From Escherichia coli (GTDB taxonomy: Bacteria > Pseudomonadota > Gammaproteobacteria > Enterobacterales > Enterobacteriaceae): a DNA stretch of 64,000 nt. Where the stretch lies: the NCBI RefSeq assembly GCF_017348835.2, contig NZ_CP071375.1; one strand, written 5' to 3'. The translations under genes and the position numbers were made by a program. Below the pieces are notes generated by a model, which saw nothing but the letters and a program-made list of their open reading frames with translations, ran no database searches and was not told the origin of the DNA. Shown piece by piece: positions 10,670 to 23,976 of the stretch; within the stretch, counting starts at the first letter, position 1, and the number at the start of each line of letters is the position of its first letter.

Positions 10670-11557
10670 TTATCGGGTCATGTTGATGCCGGATGCTTTC
10701 TGCTCCAGCATACGTTTCGCCAAATCCACAATGACGGCTGCGGCTTCAACCGGCGGCGTGCCGCCCTGGTGAATGTTAGAGATACAGGTGCGATCGGCCT
10801 CAACGGTGGTCGCCATACGCGGCGAGTAAACGGCGTAGCAGGAGAGGCTTTCTGACTGACCCAACCCCGGACGTTCGCCCACCAGCAGGATCACTACTTT
10901 CGCGCCGAGGATCTCACCGATCTGATCTTCAATCTTCACGCGACCATAACGAACAAAGAATGGTGTACCGACTTTCAGCCCGGCCTGTTTCAGGCCCGCC
11001 ATCAGCGGTGGCAGGATCTCTTCGTAGTTCACGGTGATCGCATCAGTTGACAGGCCATCAGAAATAACGACCTGTACGTCCGGATTAGCAACACACTGTG
11101 CTTTCAGCGCTTCAACAGCTTCTGCACACAGGCGGCGGCCCATATCCGGGCGAGTCAGGTAGAGATTTTTGTCGCTAATTTCGGAGCGTACTTCCAGCAA
11201 GCCCTGCGCTTTCACCCACTCTTCCGGCACTTCTTTCAGTACGGTATCTTTCGAACGAGAGTGATCGGCCAGGAAACGCAGCAGCGCCTGGGTACGCGGA
11301 CGCGGACCGGCACGACCGGTACAAACGCGGGCCACGGTGCTGCGGCGCAGTTCTGTTAATACGTCTGCGCGATGCGGGTTTTCAACACCAATCCACGCTT
11401 TTGCTTCAGCGGAACCTAAATCCAGCGCACAGCTTTCCGAGGTCACCGGTGCCGCACAGGTGGTAGTGGCGCACTTTGCTTCTGACGGCGCGGGGGCCGT
11501 TTGTCCCATTGACGCCATCACGCTGCGTACAATTTCTTCAATCTGTTTTTGATCCAT
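10670..11557 (-). CDS. eutC: Ethanolamine ammonia-lyase small subunit
   Basis: 295-aa ORF directly downstream of eutB. Confidence 0.93.
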
Positions 11558-11577
11558 GATGTGTTATCTCCGCGTCA

Positions 11578-12939
11578 TCAGAAGAACAGTGACGGATCGC
11601 CCGCCCGTTTGGTCAGGCGACCGTTTGCCATAATGCCCATGCTTTCCAGCCAGCGTTCAAACTCCGGTGACGGGCGCAGGTTGAGTAACTGACGCACAGT
11701 GGCGGTATCGTGGAATGCGGTGGTCTGGTAATTGAGCATGATGTCATCACCCAGCGGCATCCCCATGATGTAGTTGCAGCCTGCGGTGGCGAGCAGGATC
11801 ATCAGGTTTTCGTTGAGGTTCTGGTCAGCGTCAGCGTGGTTGGTGTAACAGCAGTCACAGCCCATAGAGATGCCGCTCAGCTTGCCCATAAAGTGATCTT
11901 CTAAGCCCGCACGAATAATCTGGCGGTCATTGTAGAGATACTCCGGCCCAATAAAGCCGACCACGGTGTTGACGATAAACGGATCGTAATGACGCGCCAG
12001 CCCGTAGTTACGCGCTTCCATGGTCACCTGGTCTGCGCCGTAGTTGGCACCCGCCGACAGCGCCGAACCTTGCCCGGTTTCGAAGTAGAGGCAGTTTTCC
12101 CCGGCGATACGGTTGAACTCTGCACCCACTGCGCGCGCTTCGTCGAGCATCGCCAGTTCCACGCCAAACTCTTTCAGCCCTTTTTCACTGCCACAGATAC
12201 TCTGGAAAATCAGCCCGCCTGGTGCGCCACGACGAATCGCTTCGATCTGGGTGGTGACGTGCGCCAGTACGCAGCCCTGAGTTGGGATGTTGAATTTGTC
12301 GATCACGCCATAGATGGTGTCCAGCACGCGGCTTAAGTTTTCCACGTCGTCAGTTACCGGGTTGACGCCGATCACCGCATCGCCCACCCCGAAGGAAAGC
12401 CCTTCGTAGATTTGCGCGGCGATACTTTGCACGTCGTCACGGGTGTCATTTGGCTGCAAACGGGCGCTAAAGGTGCCCGGAATACCGATGGTGGTATTGG
12501 CCTTTTTGATTACCGGCATTTTCTTCGCGCCGTAGATCAGGTCCGCGTTGGAGCAAATCTTCGCTACCGCCGCGACCACTTCCGAGGTCAGCCCTTTGCG
12601 GGTAAAGGCAATGTCGTCCACGCTGGTTTCATCGCTCAGCACATACTCACGCAGTTCGCTGATGCTCCAGTTTTTAATCTGGTTGTAGGCCGTTTCGTTA
12701 ACATCGTCCTGAATCAGCCGCGTCACGCAGTCATCTTCATAGGCAATCACCGGATTATTGCGGATGTCCGCTACGGTCATTTCCGACAACACCTGCTTTG
12801 CTGCCACGCGCTCCTGTGAGCTTGCCGCTGCAACGCCCGCCAGCACATCCCCCGAACGCAGTTCGTTGGCTTTAGCCAGCACCTCTTTTACATCCTTAAA
12901 CTGATATACATTGCCGAACAATGTGGTCTTTAGTTTCAT
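11578..12939 (-). CDS. eutB: Ethanolamine ammonia-lyase large subunit
   Basis: ORF trimmed to ATG 12937-12939 (MKLKTTLFGNVYQF...); 453 aa. Confidence 0.93.
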   Translation of the reverse strand: MKLKTTLFGNVYQFKDVKEVLAKANELRSGDVLAGVAAASSQERVAAKQVLSEMTVADIRNNPVIAYEDDCVTRLIQDDVNETAYNQIKNWSISELREYVLSDETSVDDIAFTRKGLTSEVVAAVAKICSNADLIYGAKKMPVIKKANTTIGIPGTFSARLQPNDTRDDVQSIAAQIYEGLSFGVGDAVIGVNPVTDDVENLSRVLDTIYGVIDKFNIPTQGCVLAHVTTQIEAIRRGAPGGLIFQSICGSEKGLKEFGVELAMLDEARAVGAEFNRIAGENCLYFETGQGSALSAGANYGADQVTMEARNYGLARHYDPFIVNTVVGFIGPEYLYNDRQIIRAGLEDHFMGKLSGISMGCDCCYTNHADADQNLNENLMILLATAGCNYIMGMPLGDDIMLNYQTTAFHDTATVRQLLNLRPSPEFERWLESMGIMANGRLTKRAGDPSLFF

Positions 12940-13050
12940 AAGTCGTTCCCTCAGGAAGAAGTGATGAGTGACATTTTTCACAGCCTTCAAACAATTCTAT
13001 TTCATCGTTAACCCTTGTCCTGTAAGGTAATTACCTTAGTACGCCCGCTA

Positions 13051-13087
13051 TTCATCCTGCCGAACGCAACCGAACGCGCCGGATACA
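13051..13087. repeat. Left att-like imperfect direct repeat (ttcatcctgcc..N17..ccggataca)
   Basis: Shares the 11-bp and 9-bp arms at the same spacing with 22476-22511. Confidence 0.5.
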
Positions 13088-13127
13088 TGAGCGGGGTTAT
13101 CGAGTCGTTAGATCGAGGTATCCGGTT

Positions 13128-14333
13128 TTGAGCAAGACACCACTGACAGCAAAGGCCATAGAGGCCGCACAACCGCAGGACAAGCCCTATAAACTCACCG
13201 ATTCACAGACACCTGGCCTGTTTTTGCTGGTCCATCCCAACGGCAGCAAATACTGGCGATTCCGGTATTGGATAGACAAGAAGGAGCGGTTACAGGCTAT
13301 TGGGGTGTATCCGCTGATTAGCCTCAAGGAAGCCCGCAAACGCGCCACAGAGAGCCGTTTACTGATAGCCCAGGGAATTGACCCAATGGATTTGGCACGC
13401 AAGGAGAAAGCCATTGATGCTCTTAATGCTATCGCCAGTTTTAAAGCTGTAGCAGAAGACTGGATGGCTACCAAGGTGAGCGGATGGAGTGAGAGCTATA
13501 CAAAGCAGGTCAGATCGGCACTAGAGAAAGATGTTTACCCCGTGCTAGGTAAGCGGTCGATAGTGGATATAACGGCCCGTGACGTGCTGGCGTTACTACA
13601 GAAAAAGGAGCGCACCGCACCGGAACAAGCCAGGAAATTACGCCAGCGTATCGGGGAGATCTTCAAATTTGCCGTTATCACTGAACTGGTTAACCGGAAT
13701 CCGGTTGCAGATCTGGATACGGCACTGAAAGCCAGACGCCCAGGCCATAACGCGTGGATACCGATTAATGAAATTCCGGCCTTCTACAAAGCCCTTGAGA
13801 GAGCTGGGAGCGTTCAGATTCAGACGGCAATACTTTTGCTCATCCTCACAGCTTTGAGGACGGCAGAATTGCGCCTGATGCGCTGGGAATGGGTAGATCT
13901 GCAATCGGCAACAATCACATTGCCCGCTGAAGTCATGAAGGCCCGCCGACCGCATGTTGTCCCGCTATCCCGGCAGGCGGTCGAGCTATTACAGGACCAG
14001 TTTACCCGCAGCGGATACAGTGCTTTCGTCTTTCCTGGCCGATTCATGGACAAGCCACTTTCAGCCAGTGCCATCCTTAAAGCCCTGGAGCGTATCGGAT
14101 ACAAGTCGATAGCCACAGGCCACGGCTGGCGGACCACCTTTTCAACGGCGCTTAATGAGTCCGGCAGGTACTCACCAGACTGGATCGAAATCCAACTGGC
14201 CCACGTTCCGAAAGGCGTGCGCGGTGTTTATAACCAGGCGGCCTACCTGAAGCAACGACGGGCCATGATGCAGGATTATAGCGACTGTATTGATTCAATA
14301 CTGGCTGGTGACGGTAATCCACTTGAACCGTGA
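13128..14333 (+). CDS. intZ: P4-family tyrosine site-specific integrase
   Basis: 401-aa ORF; AP2-like N-terminal domain; C-terminal catalytic region with R..HGWR..Y signature (HGWRTTFSTAL, RGVYNQAAY); first island gene beside the left repeat. Confidence 0.88.
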   Translation: MSKTPLTAKAIEAAQPQDKPYKLTDSQTPGLFLLVHPNGSKYWRFRYWIDKKERLQAIGVYPLISLKEARKRATESRLLIAQGIDPMDLARKEKAIDALNAIASFKAVAEDWMATKVSGWSESYTKQVRSALEKDVYPVLGKRSIVDITARDVLALLQKKERTAPEQARKLRQRIGEIFKFAVITELVNRNPVADLDTALKARRPGHNAWIPINEIPAFYKALERAGSVQIQTAILLLILTALRTAELRLMRWEWVDLQSATITLPAEVMKARRPHVVPLSRQAVELLQDQFTRSGYSAFVFPGRFMDKPLSASAILKALERIGYKSIATGHGWRTTFSTALNESGRYSPDWIEIQLAHVPKGVRGVYNQAAYLKQRRAMMQDYSDCIDSILAGDGNPLEP

Positions 14334-14455
14334 ACTATAAGGCCGGGTTTATACTCAATATCGACGGTTGAAGCGCTCAAAAAACAACCGTGACAACCGT
14401 CACAAATATGCAATGTCAATGATCTGAATCAATAAATTGCCAATTCTTCGTTTCC

Positions 14456-14470
14456 ACTTTCGAATGAAAG
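14456..14470. repeat. 15-bp motif actttcgaatgaaag, copy 1 (internal inverted repeat ctttc/gaaag)
   Basis: Exact duplicate of 14591-14605. Confidence 0.7.
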
Positions 14471-14590
14471 CAAGATGCAGAAAAATAAATCACCATGAAA
14501 TCATGTACTTATTAATTTTGACCAAATGGTCCAAAATATCCTCGGTGAATCCATGCTTGCCACAGCCAGATGATTAATATTTAACCCATG

Positions 14591-14605
14591 ACTTTCGAAT
14601 GAAAG
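14591..14605. repeat. 15-bp motif actttcgaatgaaag, copy 2
   Basis: Exact duplicate of 14456-14470, 135 bp away, in AT-rich non-coding DNA. Confidence 0.7.
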
Positions 14606-14733
14606 TAAATTGATAAAAAAGTCAGTGTACACTAACTAAATCGAATATTTTTTGCGCTATGTTTGAATGATAATTGAGCAAAACTTTCGCAAGGTGTGAC
14701 GATGTGAGTAATTAATTTTAACTCTACAATAAA

Positions 14734-14791
14734 CCCATCCCGACAGGGATGGTACCTGGAGCGGAGCGAGAGGGACCATCCCCCTGTTTTT
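14734..14791 (+). terminator. Nested hairpins followed by a T-run (terminator-like; may also act on the minus strand)
   Basis: cccatcccgacagggatgg hairpin overlapping ggatggtacc..N16..gggaccatcc stem, then ccctgttttt. Confidence 0.45.
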
Positions 14792-14884
14792 AGTCTTTTG
14801 AAGTTAGTTTTTTAAGGGATTAAATAATTTTGCCTCAAATGAGACCACACCATACAAGGCCAAAAACAATCAGTATTGCGTGGA

Positions 14885-15400
14885 TCAGGCTGGTTTTTTA
14901 ACTATATACCCCGTATGCCAAGGATTCTGATCGCGCGGCATCGGGTCCGCCTTGATAGACTCATAAAACTTATCAGCCATCTCAGCCACAAACTGTACAG
15001 AGGATTCGAACTCAGCGTTTTTGTGTGCGGGAGGAAACCAGAAGTCTAACACGCCAGCATTTCTATTTTTACATACAGCGTATATAAGATAAGCATCAGA
15101 TGTAGGGGTAACTTTTTCGAAACCACCGGGACCATAACGACCAGTAGACCAGTCATCCCAGCATTGTTCTGTCCCGCTATAGCCGTACTGATTGGTATAA
15201 AGACCAATATTTACATGGACTTTACGTAAGTGGATAGGATATACACACGGGGGTTTATGGAAAAGAGTATCCTTTCCAAAATCAGGATGATGTCCATATC
15301 TCCAATGATAAATAAACGAATCCTTAAAGCTCTTTAATTCATCGTTTGTTTTAAACTTATTATCACTGTAGACCTTACCAATAAATTCATTCTGGACCAT
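14885..15400 (-). CDS. Hypothetical protein (171 aa), distal gene of two-gene island cassette
   Basis: ORF 14885-15403; ATG at 15398-15400; overlaps upstream gene by 14 nt; Trp/Tyr/His-rich, no family recognised. Confidence 0.6.
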   Translation of the reverse strand: MVQNEFIGKVYSDNKFKTNDELKSFKDSFIYHWRYGHHPDFGKDTLFHKPPCVYPIHLRKVHVNIGLYTNQYGYSGTEQCWDDWSTGRYGPGGFEKVTPTSDAYLIYAVCKNRNAGVLDFWFPPAHKNAEFESSVQFVAEMADKFYESIKADPMPRDQNPWHTGYIVKKPA

Positions 15401-15734
15401 CAAAGCTTACACTCTTTAAGCGTTCTTCTCGTGAATCGAATAAATCTTTTGATAAATCACACGCTTGTGTGAACGTCATTTTTTTTACTCGTGGTACAGC
15501 CATAGGCGAGGCCGCATTCATCACTTTGTTTTCTTCGTGATCGAGAGTAGCAGTGTAGCGAAACATGACACTTTTACCGCGCACCAACTGGTATCCTAGT
15601 CGATACGCTAACGCGTCAAGATGCGTCAGACGATTTGTTTTACGCAAGCCAGTCATAGCTTTTGGCTTACGAGTGCGCACAGAAAGGGATTTCCCTTCTC
15701 GCTTAGTCGCAAACAAAGTAACTATTTTTGACAT
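15387..15734 (-). CDS. Hypothetical basic protein (115 aa), proximal gene of two-gene island cassette
   Basis: ATG 15732-15734 preceded by GGAGA RBS; Lys/Arg-rich; stop overlaps start of downstream gene. Confidence 0.55.
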   Translation of the reverse strand: MSKIVTLFATKREGKSLSVRTRKPKAMTGLRKTNRLTHLDALAYRLGYQLVRGKSVMFRYTATLDHEENKVMNAASPMAVPRVKKMTFTQACDLSKDLFDSREERLKSVSFDGPE

Positions 15735-16290
15735 GGTATCTCCTGACATCAATCTGCTAAGGCCATTGTGCCTTGTTTGAATAGTAAACTATTCGCCCAA
15801 TCTACACCAGTGATTTTCTTGACGCCAATAGTAAAGGCAGCATTGCCCACCACAGGCAGACAATGAGACTTCAGATAGCGCACCTTCTATCGCGCACGCG
15901 CTCAATAAAACCAACGACACCGCCATCCTGCCTGACCGATGTTTTTAACCAGCGTATACAGAGAAACAGACAACAGCATGAAATCAGCGTATATCCAGGT
16001 GCAGACGGCACTATCACACAACGCACAGCAGGCTGAGGTGAACACTCAAGCAACTTTATCCCCGCCACCGACCACCGCAAACTATCATGACCGTGCCAAA
16101 TTCAAAAGGAATGGCCCATATAACGCGATGAACACACATAAGCGCTACACTTGCTTACCTGAAAACTTCACAGCGTCACAGCGCGTTTTAGACACGTTAA
16201 AATTAATGAGATTTCATTAAATTTTCACCAGACACCGGAACAAGCCTATAAATCAAAAATGAATTACCGACATGCGCCGCTGGCGTTCAC

Positions 16291-16310
16291 AGGAAGAATC
16301 AATAACTTAG
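16291..16310. repeat. Imperfect direct repeat aggaagaatcaataacttag, copy 1
   Basis: 17/20 identical to 16391-16410, exactly 100 bp downstream. Confidence 0.55.
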
Positions 16311-16390
16311 GCCAATGGCGAAAGTTAAACAAAATCAAGAACTTGCAGAAATGCAGGATGAAGCAGCCGATGTGCCCCGTTGGATTTTAC

Positions 16391-16410
16391 CAGAAGAATC
16401 AACAAGTTAG
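16391..16410. repeat. Imperfect direct repeat cagaagaatcaacaagttag, copy 2
   Basis: See 16291-16310. Confidence 0.55.
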
Positions 16411-16662
16411 ACTCGGTGATTTCACCGACTCCTGCCGGACTACTGACCAGATCGAACCATTCCCCAAATTTGGGGAGAGCAAACCACACGCAGATCCTGC
16501 CAGGCTATTTCATCCCACCGCATCACGTATTTGCACACTTCCCCGCTGACGTGCTCATTTTGATAACGAGTTACCCGCTAGCCCTTGCCACATCACCATT
16601 TGTCGCGCTTTGACTAAATTAGCGACGTGCCTGTTATAGCGATACGCTAGTTATGCAGAAAG

Positions 16663-16682
16663 CGCGACATATCCAGCAACCA
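16663..16682. repeat. Exact 20-bp direct repeat cgcgacatatccagcaacca, copy 1
   Basis: Identical to 16790-16809; lies just upstream of the 16707 ORF start. Confidence 0.7.
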
Positions 16683-16706
16683 TGCACCCTACAGAGGAAT
16701 TGAATC

Positions 16707-17159
16707 ATGCGAGACATAGACTGGTCAGCTATCCCTTTCGATGATTTACCGCCCTGGCATCTGGACTGGGACGTAGACCAACGCGAAAACGCGACATATC
16801 CAGCAACCACCAGCATTACAGCGATGCGCCCCGTAAAGCCTAAGAAATACCAGGCAACCGACCTGATAGCTCACCTCAAAGCTATTGGCGGCGTATTTAC
16901 CGGAAGCAAAGACACGCTTGCACATGAAGTATGGCCCCGGAAGACGCCAGCGGGTCGAACCGTTTTACGCTTACTGACCGAACTGTCAGACAACGGCGAC
17001 GCTGTAGTGATTAACCGTGGTCGTTGTGGCGTGGAAGTTATTCTGACGCCGAAGAACAGGGCACAGACGCCTGAATTAAGCGCACCCAAGCAAATGCATA
17101 GCCAAAAATTAAGTCCAGCAGAACGCGTTATATCGCTTTTAAATGGCATCGGATTTTAA
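16707..17159 (+). CDS. Hypothetical protein (150 aa)
   Basis: ORF with GAGG RBS about 10 nt upstream of the ATG; non-repetitive composition; no family recognised. Confidence 0.5.
   Translation: MRDIDWSAIPFDDLPPWHLDWDVDQRENATYPATTSITAMRPVKPKKYQATDLIAHLKAIGGVFTGSKDTLAHEVWPRKTPAGRTVLRLLTELSDNGDAVVINRGRCGVEVILTPKNRAQTPELSAPKQMHSQKLSPAERVISLLNGIGF
16790..16809. repeat. Exact 20-bp direct repeat cgcgacatatccagcaacca, copy 2
   Basis: Inside the 5' end of the 16707 ORF; 127 bp from copy 1. Confidence 0.7.
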
Positions 17160-17446: not shown

Positions 17447-17490
17447 GCGGTGAGGGTTTTCTCCATATTTTTCCTCACCGCTACTTTTTC
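17447..17490 (+). terminator. Terminator/attenuator-like hairpin immediately upstream of the AlpA-like gene
   Basis: gcggtgagg..N17..cctcaccgc stem then tactttttc; a third complementary segment gaggtgag overlaps the RBS of the next gene. Confidence 0.45.
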
Positions 17491-17501: not shown

Positions 17502-17693
17502 ATGAATGATAGCGAATTAATGACGGTGAACGAGGTAGCCGCTTTATTCGGCGTTACCCGTCGGACAATATTCCGGTGGATGAACAAGATTAAAGGCTGG
17601 CCCGTCCCGGTCAGTCCGATTGGCTCAAGAATTAAGTTTATCCGATCTGAGATTTTGGAATTCTATAAAAACAAAGGCGCTCGCCACCAATGA
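17502..17693 (+). CDS. AlpA/Xis-like small DNA-binding regulator (phage transcriptional regulator family)
   Basis: 63-aa ORF with HTH-like segment VNEVAALFGVTRRTIFRWM; GAGGTGA RBS. Confidence 0.65.
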   Translation: MNDSELMTVNEVAALFGVTRRTIFRWMNKIKGWPVPVSPIGSRIKFIRSEILEFYKNKGARHQ

Positions 17694-17769
17694 AAACAGC
17701 TACTGAGATTATCAAATAACCTATTGATTTAAAAAGCTAGCTACCGCAATTTCTGAAGGAATAGGCAGC

Positions 17770-18096
17770 ATGAAAATCAAAGCAAACACAATTAAAGAAA
17801 TAACATCAATCAAAGTAAAAGGAGCAGATGCCATGCATTCATTAGATAGTTATTTTCAGCGCACGACAGCCCCTAAATCAGCCGCCCAGGAACGCCGTGA
17901 GGAATTCCAGGAAAAAGTGATGCGTTCTGCTGATTATATTGCGGACAAGTTCGCGGAAACGGTTCGGCCACTTGTTGATGAAGTAGCTGATAAACTTCAG
18001 TCTGAAATGCCGGAAGACATGGAAGGCACTGCAAAGGCGCGACTCCTTTTTGAATTAAGTCGTCGTTTCGGCGTGTCAATAAGCACTTTTAAATAA
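17770..18096 (+). CDS. Hypothetical phage protein (108 aa)
   Basis: ORF in co-directional island gene string; no family recognised. Confidence 0.5.
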   Translation: MKIKANTIKEITSIKVKGADAMHSLDSYFQRTTAPKSAAQERREEFQEKVMRSADYIADKFAETVRPLVDEVADKLQSEMPEDMEGTAKARLLFELSRRFGVSISTFK

Positions 18097-18113
18097 TCGG
18101 AGGAGGAAAGACA

Positions 18114-18656
18114 ATGGACGCATTTGATGTACTGACAAACAAAGGCGATGAACTGGTAGCACAGCGTGATAAAACCGCCAACGAAGGGGAACGCGCACTG
18201 TTAAATAAGCAGATTAAAGCGATCCGTATGGCCCAGTTTAAATTAATCAGCAATGAAGTTATCGAAAAAATTAAACCGCAGATCCCACAAATCGTTGCTG
18301 ACGCTATTAAAGCCGCCGGACTGGAGAAACGCATTGCCGGGCTGAAAACGAACGCAGAGAAAATGGAGATGCACAAACAGAGCGGTGCTCCGACTCCGGA
18401 TGAGTACTTCTCACCGGATGCTGAGTTTATGGCGCAGGTTGAGGAACGTCTGGGTAGCTGTCTCACCGAGGAACAGTGTCGCTATTTTGATGGAGTGGAT
18501 AGTTCGGCAGGTATTGACCTGAACTCGTATTTCGGTCGTGAAATTGAGCATTTTGATGCCGCCCCGTCTATGCCGGAGCCAGAACCAGAAATGGCCGCCG
18601 ATCCTGAAGCTGAGCAACGGAAACGCGTATTCAATGCGATAGGGATTCGGTACTGA
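18114..18656 (+). CDS. Hypothetical phage protein (180 aa), acidic C-terminus
   Basis: ORF preceded by GGAGGAAAG RBS (18092-18108); no family recognised. Confidence 0.55.
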   Translation: MDAFDVLTNKGDELVAQRDKTANEGERALLNKQIKAIRMAQFKLISNEVIEKIKPQIPQIVADAIKAAGLEKRIAGLKTNAEKMEMHKQSGAPTPDEYFSPDAEFMAQVEERLGSCLTEEQCRYFDGVDSSAGIDLNSYFGREIEHFDAAPSMPEPEPEMAADPEAEQRKRVFNAIGIRY

Positions 18657-18707
18657 TCGGATAAAAGAAAGCCGGGAATTACCCCGGCTGACTTAACAAT
18701 GTGACCA

Positions 18708-19082
18708 ATGAACAAATCGGACAAGACAAACAGGATAAGCAGTCTCGAAACAATGTTCGGGAACTATATTAGCACAAGTCCGGAGAAAATCATCATGTTG
18801 GCACTACGCATCATGCAGGGCATCGCTAAGACCCTCGCAGAACATGTCTTAGACCTGAAACATTCGCCACTGAGCAAACAGGCCATGAAGCGCCAAACGC
18901 TTCGTCTGTGGGCTGAATATTCGCTTGGAACTATCAATAAAATCATCGACATGAAATCGGGGCCGAGCAACCAGAGCGCGGAGGAAATGGAGTTCATCAG
19001 GCGTTTAATTCTCATTCGCAGAGACATTCATAGCCAGTTACACAGCGTGGGAATCGATATTAATGATGGGACGGGCGATTAA
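18708..19082 (+). CDS. Hypothetical phage protein (124 aa)
   Basis: ORF in co-directional gene string. Confidence 0.45.
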   Translation: MNKSDKTNRISSLETMFGNYISTSPEKIIMLALRIMQGIAKTLAEHVLDLKHSPLSKQAMKRQTLRLWAEYSLGTINKIIDMKSGPSNQSAEEMEFIRRLILIRRDIHSQLHSVGIDINDGTGD

Positions 19083-19120
19083 TTTTCGGACAAGTACTAT
19101 GCGCGCGCGAGGAGCTGAAC

Positions 19121-19351
19121 ATGAAGCAAGATATTGCAGACAGGCTGGAGATACTCGAAGGCCAGCGGGCAGAAGCGAAACAACTACGTAAGCAGGCCAG
19201 AAGAGCGCACAGGAACTACGAAGCAGAATCACTGACCGCTTTCATCAACTTCACAAACCGTTGCATCCTGGAGTGTTACAGGGAGGATGCAGAAAACTGG
19301 CTGGATTCATTGCCAGAACAGACTCTGCATGAACTGAACGGCGACCAGTAA
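19121..19351 (+). CDS. Hypothetical phage protein (76 aa)
   Basis: ORF with GAGGAG RBS upstream. Confidence 0.45.
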   Translation: MKQDIADRLEILEGQRAEAKQLRKQARRAHRNYEAESLTAFINFTNRCILECYREDAENWLDSLPEQTLHELNGDQ

Positions 19352-19638: not shown

Positions 19639-21819
19639 ATGAGTGGAAATCTCGGGACCATATACTACGAGGTCGATGCCCGCACTGGGAAACTTCTTAT
19701 CGCGCAACAGCAGGCGGAAGAGGCGTTCGATCGCATTGAACGAGGAGCGCGGAAGGCTGATAGCGGCGTCAAAAAGTTAAATACGCAGATGACTAAAACA
19801 TCAGCCGCAGTCAAAACCAACCTTTCCCCGGCAATCCGTAACGCATCATACCAGATCGCAGACCTTGCCACTCAATTGCAGATGGGCGGTAATGCGCTTC
19901 AGGCGTTCGCTGTGCAGGGTGCGCAGTTATTAGCTGGCTTTGGCACGATGGGCGCGGTAGCTGGCGCGGTGCTGGCTATCGCTGGCGCTATGGGTGGAAG
20001 CCTGGCACAAGGCGCTGATAGTGCAGCCGGATCGGTTGAGTATCTGGACAAGGCGATCACCAAACTGAACGAGGTCATAGCTGTAAATGAACAGGGCGTG
20101 ACGGTGATGAGTGATAGTTACGCCAGACTTTCTAAGGTTAACGCTGAAGTAGCGAAACAGATGCGGAACATGGCTGAAATTCAGGCAATTGCAGCACTGC
20201 GTGACCTGAAAGAACAGGCAAGCCAGGCACAGGGGGAAATGTCGTCATTCTGGCGCAGCTTGCAGGGTGGTAAAGCTGACGCAGCAGCAGCAGCACAGGC
20301 ACTTGATGATCTTGGAATCACAACCAACGACTACAAAGAGGCGATAGCCATACTGAACGCCAATCAGCCGGATACACAGGCGCAAATGGCAACGCTAGCT
20401 AAGTCCGTGATGTACATAGGCGAGGAATACAACCTGACAAACCAGCAAGCCTACGAGTTCATCCGAGCACTAAATAGGGCCGCGACAACGAGAACGCCGG
20501 AAGCCATGCAGGAACTATCGGGCTTCATGCAGGTATTGCTACAGGACACCGAAAACGGTAACGAGGCATTCCGTGAACTGGCTATCAAATTCGTTGATGC
20601 ACAAACCAAAGGCGCAATGCTGGAAGACCAACTAAACCGACTGAAAGGCGCTATCAGTGACGCAGCCACAGAAGCCAGAAACGCCAATTTTACCACTATG
20701 CTCAACACCGTCGCCGCACGCCTGGCAGCCATTGAGCAAGGTTGGGAGGCAGGCGTTAGGATGCAGATGAAAGCCCAGGGCTACACTGAAGAGCAGATCG
20801 ATGAATATGTGAACATGGAAACGGCGTACCGTGATGCAAAAGCCGCTTTGGACGAGAAGAATAAGGCCGACCGTGAAGCTATTGCGCTATCCAAACGCCA
20901 GGCCGCAGAAGCAGCCCGCAAGGCAAAACAGGAAGAAGCTGAAGCACAACGCAAGGCCAAACAGTTAGCCGCGCAGAAGGAGCAGGCAGGACGCTTTACG
21001 CAGCAAGTAATGACGGAATACCTGACGACCGTAGATCCGGCAACAGGCAAGGCGTTTAACCCTGCCGCACAAGTAGAAATGCAGGAGCAGCAGAAGAAAG
21101 CGGCGCTGGATAAATACAGACAGTTGGGCGTCCTGGATGAACAGCAGTACCAGAACACGCTAACCGCCATCCAGAAAACCGCGTCAATGCGCCGCCAGCA
21201 AATCATCAAAGACGAGGCCGACACGTTATTCAACAATCAGCAACAGTTGATCGGCACATTTGGCGATTTCTTCGGTGAACTGTCTGGAGTCATAGCAGAC
21301 GGTGCAGGTGAGCAAAACGCGGCATATCAAGCGCTATTTGCTGTGCAGAAGGGTTTTGTATTGGCATCAGCAGCTTTAAGCCTTCAGAAAGCGCTTGCTG
21401 AGGCAAACGCCTTGCCTTTCCCGGCTAATCTTCCGGCCTATGCGCAAGCTATGTCAGCAGGCACGCAGATCATTTCAGCTATTCGTGGAATAGCTTTCGG
21501 TGGCGGACGCTACAACGGCGGCGCGGTTGGTGCTGGCAACCTGTACCGCGTGGGTGAACACGGTAAGCCTGAGATATTCAAGGCGAACAATGGCAGCCAG
21601 TACATGATCCCAGGTGATAACGGTCGCGTGATAAGTAATCGTGACATTGGCGGCGGTGGCGGCGTAACAATCAACAGCCCGATCACCATTAACACTACGA
21701 ATGGCTTCAGTGATGAAGACTCAAGGCGTCTTGAGGAAGCGATGAAGCGCGTAGCTATGGGCGTTTGCAGGCAGGAGTCAACCAGACCGGGAGGAATGTT
21801 AGCCCCGCGCCGTCGTTAA
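19639..21819 (+). CDS. Phage tail tape-measure-like protein (lambdoid H-like), orphan
   Basis: 726-aa Ala/Gln-rich coiled-coil ORF; C-terminal GNLYR motif and Gly-rich tail as in lambda H; no neighbouring tail genes. Confidence 0.6.
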   Translation: MSGNLGTIYYEVDARTGKLLIAQQQAEEAFDRIERGARKADSGVKKLNTQMTKTSAAVKTNLSPAIRNASYQIADLATQLQMGGNALQAFAVQGAQLLAGFGTMGAVAGAVLAIAGAMGGSLAQGADSAAGSVEYLDKAITKLNEVIAVNEQGVTVMSDSYARLSKVNAEVAKQMRNMAEIQAIAALRDLKEQASQAQGEMSSFWRSLQGGKADAAAAAQALDDLGITTNDYKEAIAILNANQPDTQAQMATLAKSVMYIGEEYNLTNQQAYEFIRALNRAATTRTPEAMQELSGFMQVLLQDTENGNEAFRELAIKFVDAQTKGAMLEDQLNRLKGAISDAATEARNANFTTMLNTVAARLAAIEQGWEAGVRMQMKAQGYTEEQIDEYVNMETAYRDAKAALDEKNKADREAIALSKRQAAEAARKAKQEEAEAQRKAKQLAAQKEQAGRFTQQVMTEYLTTVDPATGKAFNPAAQVEMQEQQKKAALDKYRQLGVLDEQQYQNTLTAIQKTASMRRQQIIKDEADTLFNNQQQLIGTFGDFFGELSGVIADGAGEQNAAYQALFAVQKGFVLASAALSLQKALAEANALPFPANLPAYAQAMSAGTQIISAIRGIAFGGGRYNGGAVGAGNLYRVGEHGKPEIFKANNGSQYMIPGDNGRVISNRDIGGGGGVTINSPITINTTNGFSDEDSRRLEEAMKRVAMGVCRQESTRPGGMLAPRRR

Positions 21820-22315: not shown

Positions 22316-22426
22316 TGTTCTTTCTTTTTTTGTTTTTTATTTTTTTATTTTCTCTTTTTCTTCTCTTTCCGGTTCTCTTCTTTTTCTGGTTTTGGTTTTT
22401 TCCTTTTTTATTTTTATTCTTTCTTC
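22316..22426. repeat. ~110-nt homopyrimidine (T/C-rich) low-complexity tract
   Basis: About 90% pyrimidine on the top strand by eye; no plausible coding frame. Confidence 0.7.
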
Positions 22427-22475
22427 AGGGTTGTGATCAAACACACCAAAACATTTTCGCCACAAAAGCGTTAAT

Positions 22476-22511
22476 TTCATCCTGCCAGACCATTCACTTT
22501 CACCGGATACA
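22476..22511. repeat. Right att-like imperfect direct repeat (ttcatcctgcc..N16..ccggataca)
   Basis: Partner of 13051-13087; a further partial copy (caccggatacac) at 22065-22076. Confidence 0.5.
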
Positions 22512-22572: not shown

Positions 22573-23976
22573 TCAGGAAGGAAATGCGAGTGATTTCACC
22601 GTCACCGGCACAACCGATCCGCCAAAAAGAGGCGTACCAATGTCGATATAGTCCCCCGCGCGGACAATCACTTCGTCAATGACTGCCAACGGGAGTTGTT
22701 GTAGCTGTGGGCGCAACAACATGCCCAGAGCTTTACCAAAGTCCTGCCCGGCCACCACCAGCAGGGGATGCGGATTCGGAAAACGCGCGACGAAATCGAC
22801 CAACGCGTTGATGACCGTCAGTACCGCGGCGTAACGCACAGGCAGCGAGGCGGGAAGCGCCAGCACGTACGCGTCAGTTTTGGGATCAAGATCCAGCTGA
22901 ATCAGCGCCTGTTGCCAGGCACTCACCAGATCCGTTTCATCAATCGGGATCGCCACCGGCAAATTGCGCAGCGGCAGTTGTACGCCCTCCAGCCAGATTG
23001 TGCTGCCAGAGAGCGAAAGGGTATGTGCACCCGCGCCAATCACCGTGGCGCGTACGGTTTGCGCCGGAAACTGCACGTTCATCTCACGCAGGCGCGGATG
23101 GTCATGCAGCGCCGTTGCCAGAAGCGGGCCAATATCGGCAAAACAGAACGGGTCGGCGGGCTGGTGGCGATAACATTCGCCCACGCCGCCAGAAAGCGTA
23201 ATGATTTCGGGCGTAACACCTGCGGGCAGCAAACCGGTTTGCATTAATGCCTGCGCGAGCGGCGAAAGCGTTCCGTCAATCACTTCGACAATCAGCTCTG
23301 CCATCCGCCAGGTAACCTGCACCAGCTGCGCGCCGGTCAGCGAACGGGCGTCGGTGCCTGCGCCGAAGCACTCATCCACAATCATCTGCCCCGGTTTATG
23401 AGCGTAAACCACGCGCCCCTGGCTGTCGGTTTCCAGCAGGCGACCACCGACGTTGAGGCAGGCAGTGCCGCTGATTTTTCCGGCATCGAACAGGGCGTAG
23501 TTCGCGGTGCCACCGCCGATGTCGATATTCAGTACCCGACACAGCCGTTGTTCAGAAAGGGTTTGCGCCCCGGCACCGTGACCGGCGATCACGGATTCGA
23601 GGTGCGGCCCGGCGCTGGCGACGACAAAATCGCCCAGCGACTGAGAGAGCGCCATCACCGCCGGGCGAGCATTGCGGGTTTTCGCGCTTTCACCGGTGAT
23701 GATGATGGCACCAGAATCAACGCTTTCCGGCGCAATGCCCGCAGCCTGATATTGCTCTAAAATCAGCGATTTCAGTTCCGCTTCTTTTAAACCACCCTGT
23801 TTATCGACAGGGGTAAAGAACACCGGGCTTTGCCAGCTAATTTCGCGTTTGATGAATTCGTAGCGCGGCACCTGCGACACCGCCGCACGGTTAACCAGTT
23901 CCAGGTGGGAGAAAATCACCTGGGTGGTGGTGGTGCCGATATCGATACCGACGCTCAGTAGCTGGCGAGTGTTCAC
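22573..23976 (-). CDS. eutA: Ethanolamine ammonia-lyase reactivating factor
   Basis: 467-aa ORF; conserved eut order. Confidence 0.92.
   Translation of the reverse strand: MNTRQLLSVGIDIGTTTTQVIFSHLELVNRAAVSQVPRYEFIKREISWQSPVFFTPVDKQGGLKEAELKSLILEQYQAAGIAPESVDSGAIIITGESAKTRNARPAVMALSQSLGDFVVASAGPHLESVIAGHGAGAQTLSEQRLCRVLNIDIGGGTANYALFDAGKISGTACLNVGGRLLETDSQGRVVYAHKPGQMIVDECFGAGTDARSLTGAQLVQVTWRMAELIVEVIDGTLSPLAQALMQTGLLPAGVTPEIITLSGGVGECYRHQPADPFCFADIGPLLATALHDHPRLREMNVQFPAQTVRATVIGAGAHTLSLSGSTIWLEGVQLPLRNLPVAIPIDETDLVSAWQQALIQLDLDPKTDAYVLALPASLPVRYAAVLTVINALVDFVARFPNPHPLLVVAGQDFGKALGMLLRPQLQQLPLAVIDEVIVRAGDYIDIGTPLFGGSVVPVTVKSLAFPS

Follow-up and report, generated by a model that had tools for sequence, protein, structure and literature searches.

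A conserved five-gene operon on a CPZ-55-type island of Escherichia coli, possibly part of a satellite of mEp021/ES18-type siphophages

The subject of this study is an island of approximately 9.4 kb with low GC content on the chromosome of Escherichia coli, flanked by the start of eutB on one side and by the stop of eutA on the other. It was analyzed within a stretch of 64,000 nucleotides of contig NZ_CP071375.1, hereafter called the window. By its integrase and insertion site, the island belongs to the type of CPZ-55, known from strain K-12, and it contains a block of five small genes named here HTH63 (63 amino acids, aa), A (108 aa), B (180 aa), D (95 aa) and E (76 aa). We propose that these genes are the core operon of a CPZ-55-family island which acts like a satellite of siphophages of the mEp021/ES18 type, and put the probability of the full mechanism described below at roughly 0.45. 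The narrower statement, that the genes make up a functional module which is conserved and belongs to an island of the hijacker type, is one that we make with more confidence. An earlier note on this DNA had considered the element a degraded mosaic rather than a functional prophage or satellite. That it is not a functional prophage, and that it is built in a modular way with variable cargo between conserved blocks, was borne out by our data, but degradation was not, and the genes carried by related islands speak against the dismissal of a satellite.

The block was detected in 230 of 5426 complete E. coli genomes, with a coverage of at least 80% in 147 of them, and most copies are 95-99% identical to each other. 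Across lineages, the order HTH-A-B-D-E is retained at a protein identity of only 28-58%. Sister islands at the eut site (Ceylon31, L003; 2012C-4431, L006; a Logan contig, L010; DLI.6n, L011) encode proteins 27-47% identical to A, B and D in the same order, with the same kind of helix-turn-helix (HTH) protein ahead of them. In E. coli 873.10 (L005, 7314-14937), the block resides at rssA/ychJ behind a different integrase, which is 31% identical to IntZ. The A-B-D-E proteins of this strain show 87-97% identity; an inserted HNH gene, a frameshift in D and fragments of IS256 and ISNCY were also observed. The metagenomic contig L009 contains HTH_36/DnaD_N followed by HTH_17, A, B, D and an open reading frame (ORF) of 75 aa. 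On the island of the window, which is 100% identical over its whole length to a copy in E. coli PE164, every ORF is intact, att repeats are present at both ends, and a tblastn search with the complete protein sets of six sister islands did not reveal pseudogene remnants in its non-coding stretches. Since the reading frames are intact and free of debris, and since their order has been kept across lineages and integrases, we concluded that the block is a conserved module and not a degraded mosaic. Pairwise dN/dS ratios, which rest on few substitutions, were 0.12-0.19 for the HTH gene, approximately 0.55 for A, 0.43 for B and 0.26-0.31 for E; the tape-measure gene further downstream gave 0.10 at a dS of 0.26.

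The five rightward ORFs of the earlier note exist and have all been annotated by the NCBI pipeline PGAP in the PE164 record, but the lengths given for two of them, 124 aa and 108 aa, had to be reconsidered. The ORF of 124 aa (18708-19082) is over-extended. Its ATG at 18708 is not preceded by a ribosome-binding site (RBS), while the ATG at 18795 follows a GGAGA; PGAP calls a protein of 95 aa, all 18 aligned homologues of D measure 81-97 aa, and all of them except the truncated YffM of K-12 align from the Met at 18795. For these reasons the start of D was set to 18795. A might be shorter than 108 aa, as an alternative ATG at 17833 is preceded by the RBS AAGGAG; the resulting form of 87 aa occurs in some database entries, and the relative on contig L009 begins there. 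In favor of a coding long form, the upstream part of A contains an in-frame indel of 9 nt in L005. Good RBSs were confirmed for the 63-, 180- and 76-aa genes.

HTH63 belongs to the HTH_17/excisionase family (PF12728, E=7e-9, 36.2 bits against a cut-off of 27; phrog_66 'excisionase and transcriptional regulator', E=1.7e-9), whereas its matches to TIGR01764 (E=5e-5) and Phage_AlpA (PF05930; E=0.029, 14.7 bits against a cut-off of 21) fell below the cut-offs. The protein is therefore AlpA-like by superfamily and position, but is not a member of PF05930, and the designation AlpA/Xis-like is to be understood in this sense. A, B, D and E gave no significant match in Pfam, PHROGs, NCBIfam or PADLOC, in agreement with the earlier note, to which they had not been recognizable, and none of them could be identified as a known phage protein of assigned function. 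Profile and single-sequence comparisons with PDB sequences yielded nothing meaningful for these four proteins, for a sister-island protein of 134 aa or for the phage protein gp54 discussed below; a match of B to glutamate racemase (E=7e-4) was judged compositional. In a search of 5.8e9 proteins, homologues of A, B and D came solely from E. coli/Shigella-labelled and from unlabelled metagenomic records. The profile of B found 24 matches among 1.84e9 representative proteins, two of which were spurious giant repeat proteins, and none of 50,697 phage records was matched by B in tblastn. We count D and E as accessory proteins of the block, and both are conserved. D is related to YffM of K-12, and E is 60% identical to the product of a 70-aa gene in L010 which is sited two genes (approximately 500 bp) upstream of the tape-measure gene. 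A tail assembly chaperone of the gpG/gpGT type with a -1 frameshift was considered for D/E and rejected, because the genes do not overlap (gaps of 38 nt between D and E and of 287 nt between E and the tape-measure gene); PHROG, Pfam and PDB-sequence comparisons did not match D/E to such a protein either.

The link that we propose between the block and phage heads is a short motif. B possesses confident N-terminal helices (residues 3-90) in its AlphaFold2 model, with pLDDT values of 80-93 at residues 1-70 and below 65 past residue 90; a comparison of the model with BFVD gave no match at E<=1e-3. The remaining, disordered tail of the protein is of low complexity and harbors three to five copies of xYFx in the B proteins of all lineages. 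In the window the tail contains TPDEYFS, CRYFDG, IDLNSYFG and EIEHFD, with three YF dipeptides. When B from the window and the sister islands is aligned, the YF columns do not vary, and they persist in the most distant homologues. Out of 200000 shuffled sequences, 47 reached the YF count of the B protein of the window, while zero to two did so for the other B proteins. A, helix-rich by composition and 58% identical to the protein at the same position in L009, exhibits SLDSYFQ close to its N-terminus. Sister islands encode an extra protein, C, whose C-termini read TPDIDNYFN, TPDIGSYFD, APDFNSYFD and VPDFNDYF. The consensus of the motif is [TA]PD[LI]xxYF.

The same motif terminates a protein of the temperate coliphage mEp021. 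The C-terminus of its gp54 is KPATPDINNYFA, i.e., TPDINNYFA at the very end. The pattern PD[ILF]..YF occurs only once in the six-frame translation of mEp021, namely there, and among the loci scanned it was otherwise confined to the C proteins of four sister islands, being absent from the 64-kb window. Homologues of gp54 in Oslo, RAH1, ES18 and Vibrio NF end with xYF and one or two further residues (e.g., AASEYFK in gp7 of ES18 and Oslo, or VGNYFNQ), whereas the C-terminus of the Pseudomonas homologue lacks xYF. The family of 421-423 aa (phrog_760, 'unknown function') was found at the scaffold position in siphophages of this kind (mEp021, ES18, Oslo, and phages of Klebsiella, Vibrio and Pseudomonas); its N-terminal half is highly conserved, and its C-terminal third is coiled-coil-like before it ends in xYF. 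The genes of gp54 and ES18 gp7 lie between an SPP1-gp7-like head-morphogenesis gene and the genes for decoration and coat proteins, and the records, which mark the neighbors as virion proteins, do not mark these two. Because of this position and the absence from the lists of virion proteins, we read gp54 as a scaffold or protease-scaffold. Fragments of the family have been annotated elsewhere as prohead protease. The family probably is an unannotated protease-scaffold fusion.

At the other end of the virion, the connection that we propose is a tape-measure gene located downstream of the block. Its product scored below the cut-off for Pfam TMP_2 and matched two tape-measure families of PHROGs (Table 1). 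Genes of this kind, encoding 726-732 aa, follow the block in 72 E. coli genomes, and all occurrences that were opened lay at the eut site; two tape-measure-like matches (H85 and H89) presumed to be ordinary prophages both proved to be further eut-site islands. Residues 1-82 and 620-726 of the window protein are 51% and 65% identical to gp64 of mEp021 (781 aa), respectively, while the middle part is unrelated and the whole protein 55 residues shorter. Across the mEp021 group, the last 93 residues reach 63-72% identity. The tape measures of L006 (10126-12324), L011 (12330-14519) and L010 (12895-15084) are mosaic relatives of that of the window. The L006 protein has only the last 108 residues in common with it (98.5% nucleotide identity), L011 and L010 are 43% and 73% identical over the whole length, and all island tape measures keep the N-terminal ~50 and the C-terminal ~110 residues. 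By their sequences, the mosaics would fit recombination events that replace the body of the gene and keep its ends.

The sister islands named above all have a tape measure, and sister islands carry further genes of this kind. One encodes an Sf6-type TerS-like protein (PF20901, E=2e-7; phrog_1482, E=2e-12), which corresponds to yffO of K-12, another an HK97-gp10-like tail-completion protein (phrog_5, E=2e-13). Together with a gene for a protein of 127-134 aa without assigned function they are located directly in front of the tape-measure gene. In mEp021, the counterparts of the TerS-like, gp10-like and tape-measure genes are separated by approximately 10 kb of head genes. Their adjacency without intervening head genes indicates that the layout of the islands is not that of a simple deletion derivative of a prophage. 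When all proteins of the island family were compared with the mEp021 genome, they matched proteins of corresponding function only: the TerS-like proteins are 27-33% identical to gp50 (TerS), the gp10-like protein is 45% identical to gp59, and an Xis-like island protein of 78 aa is 53% identical to gp02. That the TerS-like, gp10-like and tape-measure genes have counterparts in this phage points to the repertoire of a hijacker and not to debris. On the island of the window, no primase/replicase, terminase or capsid gene was detected with Pfam and PHROGs (for primase/replicase also with NCBIfam), just as the earlier note had stated, the tape-measure gene being situated downstream of the genes which it described.

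Upstream of the operon, an inverted repeat precedes the RBS of HTH63. It forms a GC-rich hairpin followed by a T tract, with a folding energy of -20.3 kcal/mol (z=-2.5). A hairpin with a T tract exists at the same place in four other diverged lineages (Table 1), where the arms have different sequences and the loops comprise 6-29 nt; the diverged arms could not be aligned by MAFFT for RNAalifold, so that the comparison is one of place and shape and involves no formal covariation statistic. The hairpin looks like a leader terminator, or possibly an operator, and may gate the operon. Phages of the mEp021 group are Nus-dependent (PMC11893012), and antitermination by a helper is thus a possible trigger of the operon. 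A scan for consensus promoters and terminators revealed fewer promoter-like sites than in shuffled sequence and missed the leader hairpin with its long loop. A second element, the perfect GC-rich palindrome AGCCGGGAATTACCCCGGCT, is followed by a T run on the minus strand only and is therefore no obvious terminator on the plus strand; it may influence RNA stability or processing.

Starting from the shared motif and the similarity of the tape-measure ends, we infer a sequence of steps by which the island might exploit a helper. HTH63 would act as a switch of the AlpA/Xis type, which turns on the rightward operon and aids excision by IntZ, similar to AlpA in Gram-negative PICIs (phage-inducible chromosomal islands) and PICMIs (phage-inducible chromosomal minimalist islands). 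As the mRNA of HTH63 would have to pass the hairpin and the T tract, its synthesis may be controlled by termination and antitermination. A, B (and C) might then dock in the procapsids of the helper by copying the tail motif of the scaffold, in the manner of CpmB of the Staphylococcus aureus pathogenicity islands (SaPIs). Within B, the helical N-terminal domain would oligomerize, and the multivalent tail would bind to the inner face of the major capsid protein. Competition of A, B and C with the phage scaffold could give rise to small capsids for a genome of 9-13 kb or plainly interfere with capsid assembly. Finally, the tails of the helper would incorporate the tape measure, whose ends are of the helper type, resulting in chimeric tails as described for the Vibrio PLEs (elements that resemble phage-inducible chromosomal islands). 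A still wider proposal, which we regard as rather doubtful, covers all CPZ-55-type islands including CPZ-55 of K-12. These would be an undescribed family of satellites parasitizing mEp021/ES18-type siphophages at both virion ends: A, B and C as multivalent mimics of the scaffold's C-terminal capsid-docking peptide would take over or shrink the head, the alternative tape measure with or without the tail-completion protein would customize the tail, and the leader terminator would be read through by means of a helper antiterminator.

Several observations weigh against the action of the island as a satellite. The window island lacks a TerS-like gene, as determined by tblastn with the sister-island proteins, and a recognizable replication gene. 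It also lacks C, and the motif copies in its A and B proteins are looser (IDLNSYFG, TPDEYFS). Most islands bearing the block do not possess a tape measure. The identity of gp54 as a scaffold is not accompanied by a Pfam, NCBIfam or PDB match, and the binding of B and C to the coat protein of a helper is one that we infer by analogy. Excision of CPZ-55 in K-12 takes place at a very low frequency only (PMC3105296). Between the window island and mEp021 there is neither nucleotide similarity nor a common pac site, wherefore mEp021 should be seen as the type of the helper and not necessarily as the helper itself. Capsid modules similar to those of mEp021 were found in 35 of the 5426 genomes, one of which contains the block among the matches listed. 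This is no sign of an association, and with 35 genomes only we judged the co-residence of island and mEp021-like prophage uninformative.

Some of these points would be expected if the island were not mobilized at all. It might serve defense by poisoning virion assembly, its YF decoys and alternative tape measure spoiling the capsids and tails of mEp021/ES18-type phages, so that the clone is protected as by the Tai tail-assembly inhibitors and the island spreads mainly vertically or by rare excision. The window variant without TerS-like and replication genes, the many islands that kept the block and lost the tape measure, and the rare excision in K-12 would suit this explanation, as would defense-type cargo (a YafO-like toxin, AIPR) and the fact that interference of islands with tail assembly is already known (PMC11364771). 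We nevertheless think it improbable, since the TerS-like and Xis-like genes of the sister islands fit packaging and transfer and not defense alone, two integrases at two sites and a diversity of 72-98% at one site imply horizontal movement, and the conservation of the tape-measure ends is what one would expect of a part that has to fit and not merely to block. A role of A, B, D and E unrelated to capsids, as early regulatory, anti-defense or host-takeover proteins, is likewise improbable. In this case YF would bind another oligomeric partner, such as a host factor or a replication or regulatory protein of the helper, and the likeness to gp54 would be convergent or coincidental. The genes do directly follow the AlpA-like gene, a place that PICIs use for genes of regulation and replication; small size is common to A, B and E, and B and E are acidic; structural similarity to any scaffold could not be demonstrated, and the YF motifs of the window are degenerate. 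A coincidence is, however, hard to credit for a strict motif which is unique in the mEp021 genome and is placed at the C-terminus of gp54 as well as of the C proteins, and the remaining phage-like genes of the island family all point to the same type of phage.

The view of the earlier note amounts to a non-functional remnant, that is, the fossil of an old prophage early region which has been kept because its insertion was recent and clonal. The identity of 95-99% among most copies leaves few substitutions for tests of selection, the dN/dS ratios of A and B (0.4-0.6) would be compatible with this notion, and decay is evident in some islands: there are insertions of IS1 and IS256, L004 has lost its tape measure and has a truncated E, and D is frameshifted in L005. 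Yet gene order and motif have been preserved at 28-58% protein identity and in the distant metagenomic relative, indels are in frame, the reading frames of the window are intact without debris, the tape measure has a dN/dS of 0.10 at a dS of 0.26, and the TerS-like, gp10-like and tape-measure genes stand side by side in a layout never that of a deleted prophage. We therefore regard a remnant as the least probable of these explanations and retain a satellite of mEp021/ES18-type siphophages as our preferred, if tentative, one.

The positions of all features are compiled in Table 1. IntZ of the window is 91% identical to IntZ of K-12. A tRNA gene was not found in the whole window, nor did an Rfam scan reveal an Rfam family on the island. 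Just inside attR lies an extremely T/C-rich tract of approximately 115 nt, over which PGAP has placed a minus-strand ORF of 47 aa that is probably spurious. Between the conserved blocks of the island family there are three variable slots. The slot after int is occupied in the window by the YafO-like toxin gene (phrog_1651, E=9e-43; Pfam YafO_toxin, E=2.6e-4, below the cut-off; YafO family toxin according to PGAP), in sister islands by genes for YffL-like winged HTH proteins, which are absent from the window island, or by other genes. The slot that follows E and precedes the tape-measure gene is an empty gap of ~290 bp in the window; it holds a 232-aa gene together with one for an AIPR protein of the abortive-infection type in L008 (8255-10762), and a gene for a cyclophilin-type peptidyl-prolyl isomerase in L010 (11384-11875). 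In L004, a segment with gadC, murI and IS1 (11238-15091) takes the place of the tape-measure gene. The slot after this gene contains YffQ/R/S-like genes. No family was found for orf150 in Pfam, PHROGs and NCBIfam, and its identification as a YffL-like winged HTH replication initiator was rejected (hhalign probability 1%). In the long non-coding stretch before orf150, iteron-like direct repeats of 44 nt (16267-16410; 75% identity, 100 nt spacing) were noticed, and a further iteron-like pair of 25 nt (16658-16809; 96% identity, 127 nt spacing) reaches into the gene.

Table 1. Features of the island and of related loci. Positions refer to the window unless a locus (L number) is given.
Feature	Position	Strand	Remarks
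eutB	11578-12939	-	left flank of island
attL core TTCATCCTGCC (11 nt)	13051..13061		inside ~45-nt imperfect repeat; from k-mer comparison of island ends
CCGGATACA repeat	13079		near attL
intZ	13128..14333	+	tyrosine integrase, 401 aa; Arm-DNA-bind_3, Phage_int_M and Phage_integrase domains
cargo 1	14885..15752	-	YafO-like 172-aa gene and overlapping 121-aa upstream gene; putative toxin-antitoxin pair
orf150	16707..17159	+	conserved; 100% identical in Ceylon31 island
leader inverted repeat GCGGTGAGGG-(15 nt)-CCTCACCGC, then TACTTTTT	17447..17489	+	directly 5' of RBS of HTH gene
HTH63	17502..17693	+	HTH_17/excisionase-family regulator (AlpA/Xis-like); first operon gene
A	17770..18096	+	108 aa, or 87 aa from ATG 17833
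B	18114..18656	+	180 aa
palindrome AGCCGGGAATTACCCCGGCT	18670..18689		perfect, GC-rich; between B and D
D	18795..19082	+	95 aa; YffM family, three-helix bundle
E	19121..19351	+	76 aa
tape-measure gene	19639..21819	+	726 aa; ~290 bp downstream of E; phrog_1538 E=3e-103, phrog_1107 E=7e-58
CCGGATACA(C) repeats	22067 and 22503		near attR
T-rich low-complexity tract	22319..22434		before attR; repeat family D1; same tract in L006
attR core TTCATCCTGCC	22476..22486		imperfect repeat; right end of island
eutA	22573-23976	-	right flank of island
equivalent leader hairpin	L011 8709-8750
equivalent leader hairpin	L009 1133-1158
equivalent leader hairpin	L006 6771-6827
equivalent leader hairpin	L005 8947-9004
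mEp021 gp54	L013 4202-5473		421-423-aa family, phrog_760
ES18 gp7	L018 4542-5807		421-423-aa family, phrog_760

CPZ-55 has so far been an unexplained cryptic prophage of K-12; the papers searched treat it as such only, and in none of the 35 that mention it does the word 'satellite' appear. Should the islands be satellites, they would provide a Gram-negative example of capsid hijacking by mimicry of a scaffold tail and a second lineage, after the Vibrio PLEs, with a tape measure of its own. According to a preprint from 2025, satellites other than PLE have essentially no known tape measures. The system is tractable in E. coli owing to the short motif, the availability of isolated candidate helpers (the mEp immunity-I group) and the predicted difference in tail length, and the three cargo slots draw attention to the toxin and defense-type genes of these islands.

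The closest known element is CPZ-55 itself (intZ, yffL-yffS), which occupies the same site between eutB and eutA. YffM, 37% identical to D, is the only yff gene product common to K-12 and the window island, and yffO is the TerS-like gene of the sister islands (45% identity). Missing from CPZ-55 of K-12 are HTH63, A, B, E and the tape measure; it contains yffL, yffN, yffP, yffQ, yffR and yffS instead. With the Gram-negative PICIs and PICMIs, the island shares the compact arrangement of int and an AlpA-like HTH gene heading a rightward operon, hotspots of cargo and defense genes and, in sister islands, a TerS-like gene. It differs from them in the lack of a primase/replicase and in the tape-measure and (sister islands) tail-completion genes, which are absent from PICIs and PICMIs. 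Of the genes that define PICIs and P4-like elements, whose comparison the earlier note had suggested, int and the AlpA-like regulator are present in the window. Neither pri-rep nor a gene redirecting packaging (terS, ppi, rpp) was found there, nor did PHROG and Pfam comparisons disclose psu, delta, sid, eps or the alpha primase on the island. Capsid, portal, protease and head-tail connector genes of its own, as in capsid-forming PICIs, are missing. PICMIs are defined by int, AlpA, a primase and the location next to fis (PMC10803314), whereas our island has no primase (DUF3987/DUF5906) and is inserted at eut.

Regarding the head, the nearest parallel is SaPI1. The C-terminal RIIK hook of CpmB copies the tail of the 80alpha scaffold and competes for the coat protein (PMC5644958). 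Here, too, small helical island proteins have a tail that copies the one of a helper protein, RIIK there and PD[LI]xxYF in the present case, and the island has a fraction of the size of the helper genome (9.4 kb against 54.7 kb for mEp021). There is no kinship to CpmB in sequence or in a demonstrable fold, and the motif is repeated three to five times per protein in up to three proteins. Binding to the coat protein and the formation of small capsids are proposals in the case of the island, and gp54 is a putative scaffold. Regarding the tail, the PLEs of Vibrio cholerae likewise have a tape measure which differs in length from that of the helper (here 726 against 781 aa) and is related to it, in our island chiefly at the two ends; the PLE protein is incorporated in chimeric tails (PMC11838301). 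The parallel is functional and concerns the tape measure only, to which the sister islands add a further, gp10-like tail gene. Hosts, helpers (siphophages here, a myovirus there) and gene sets are different, and a tail assembly chaperone, a baseplate hub and the replication or capsid genes of PLE were not recognizable in our islands. Taken together, these analogies suggest that the island may work like a PICI as far as its layout is concerned, whereas the step proposed for the head would have its analogue in CpmB and the one proposed for the tail in the PLEs.

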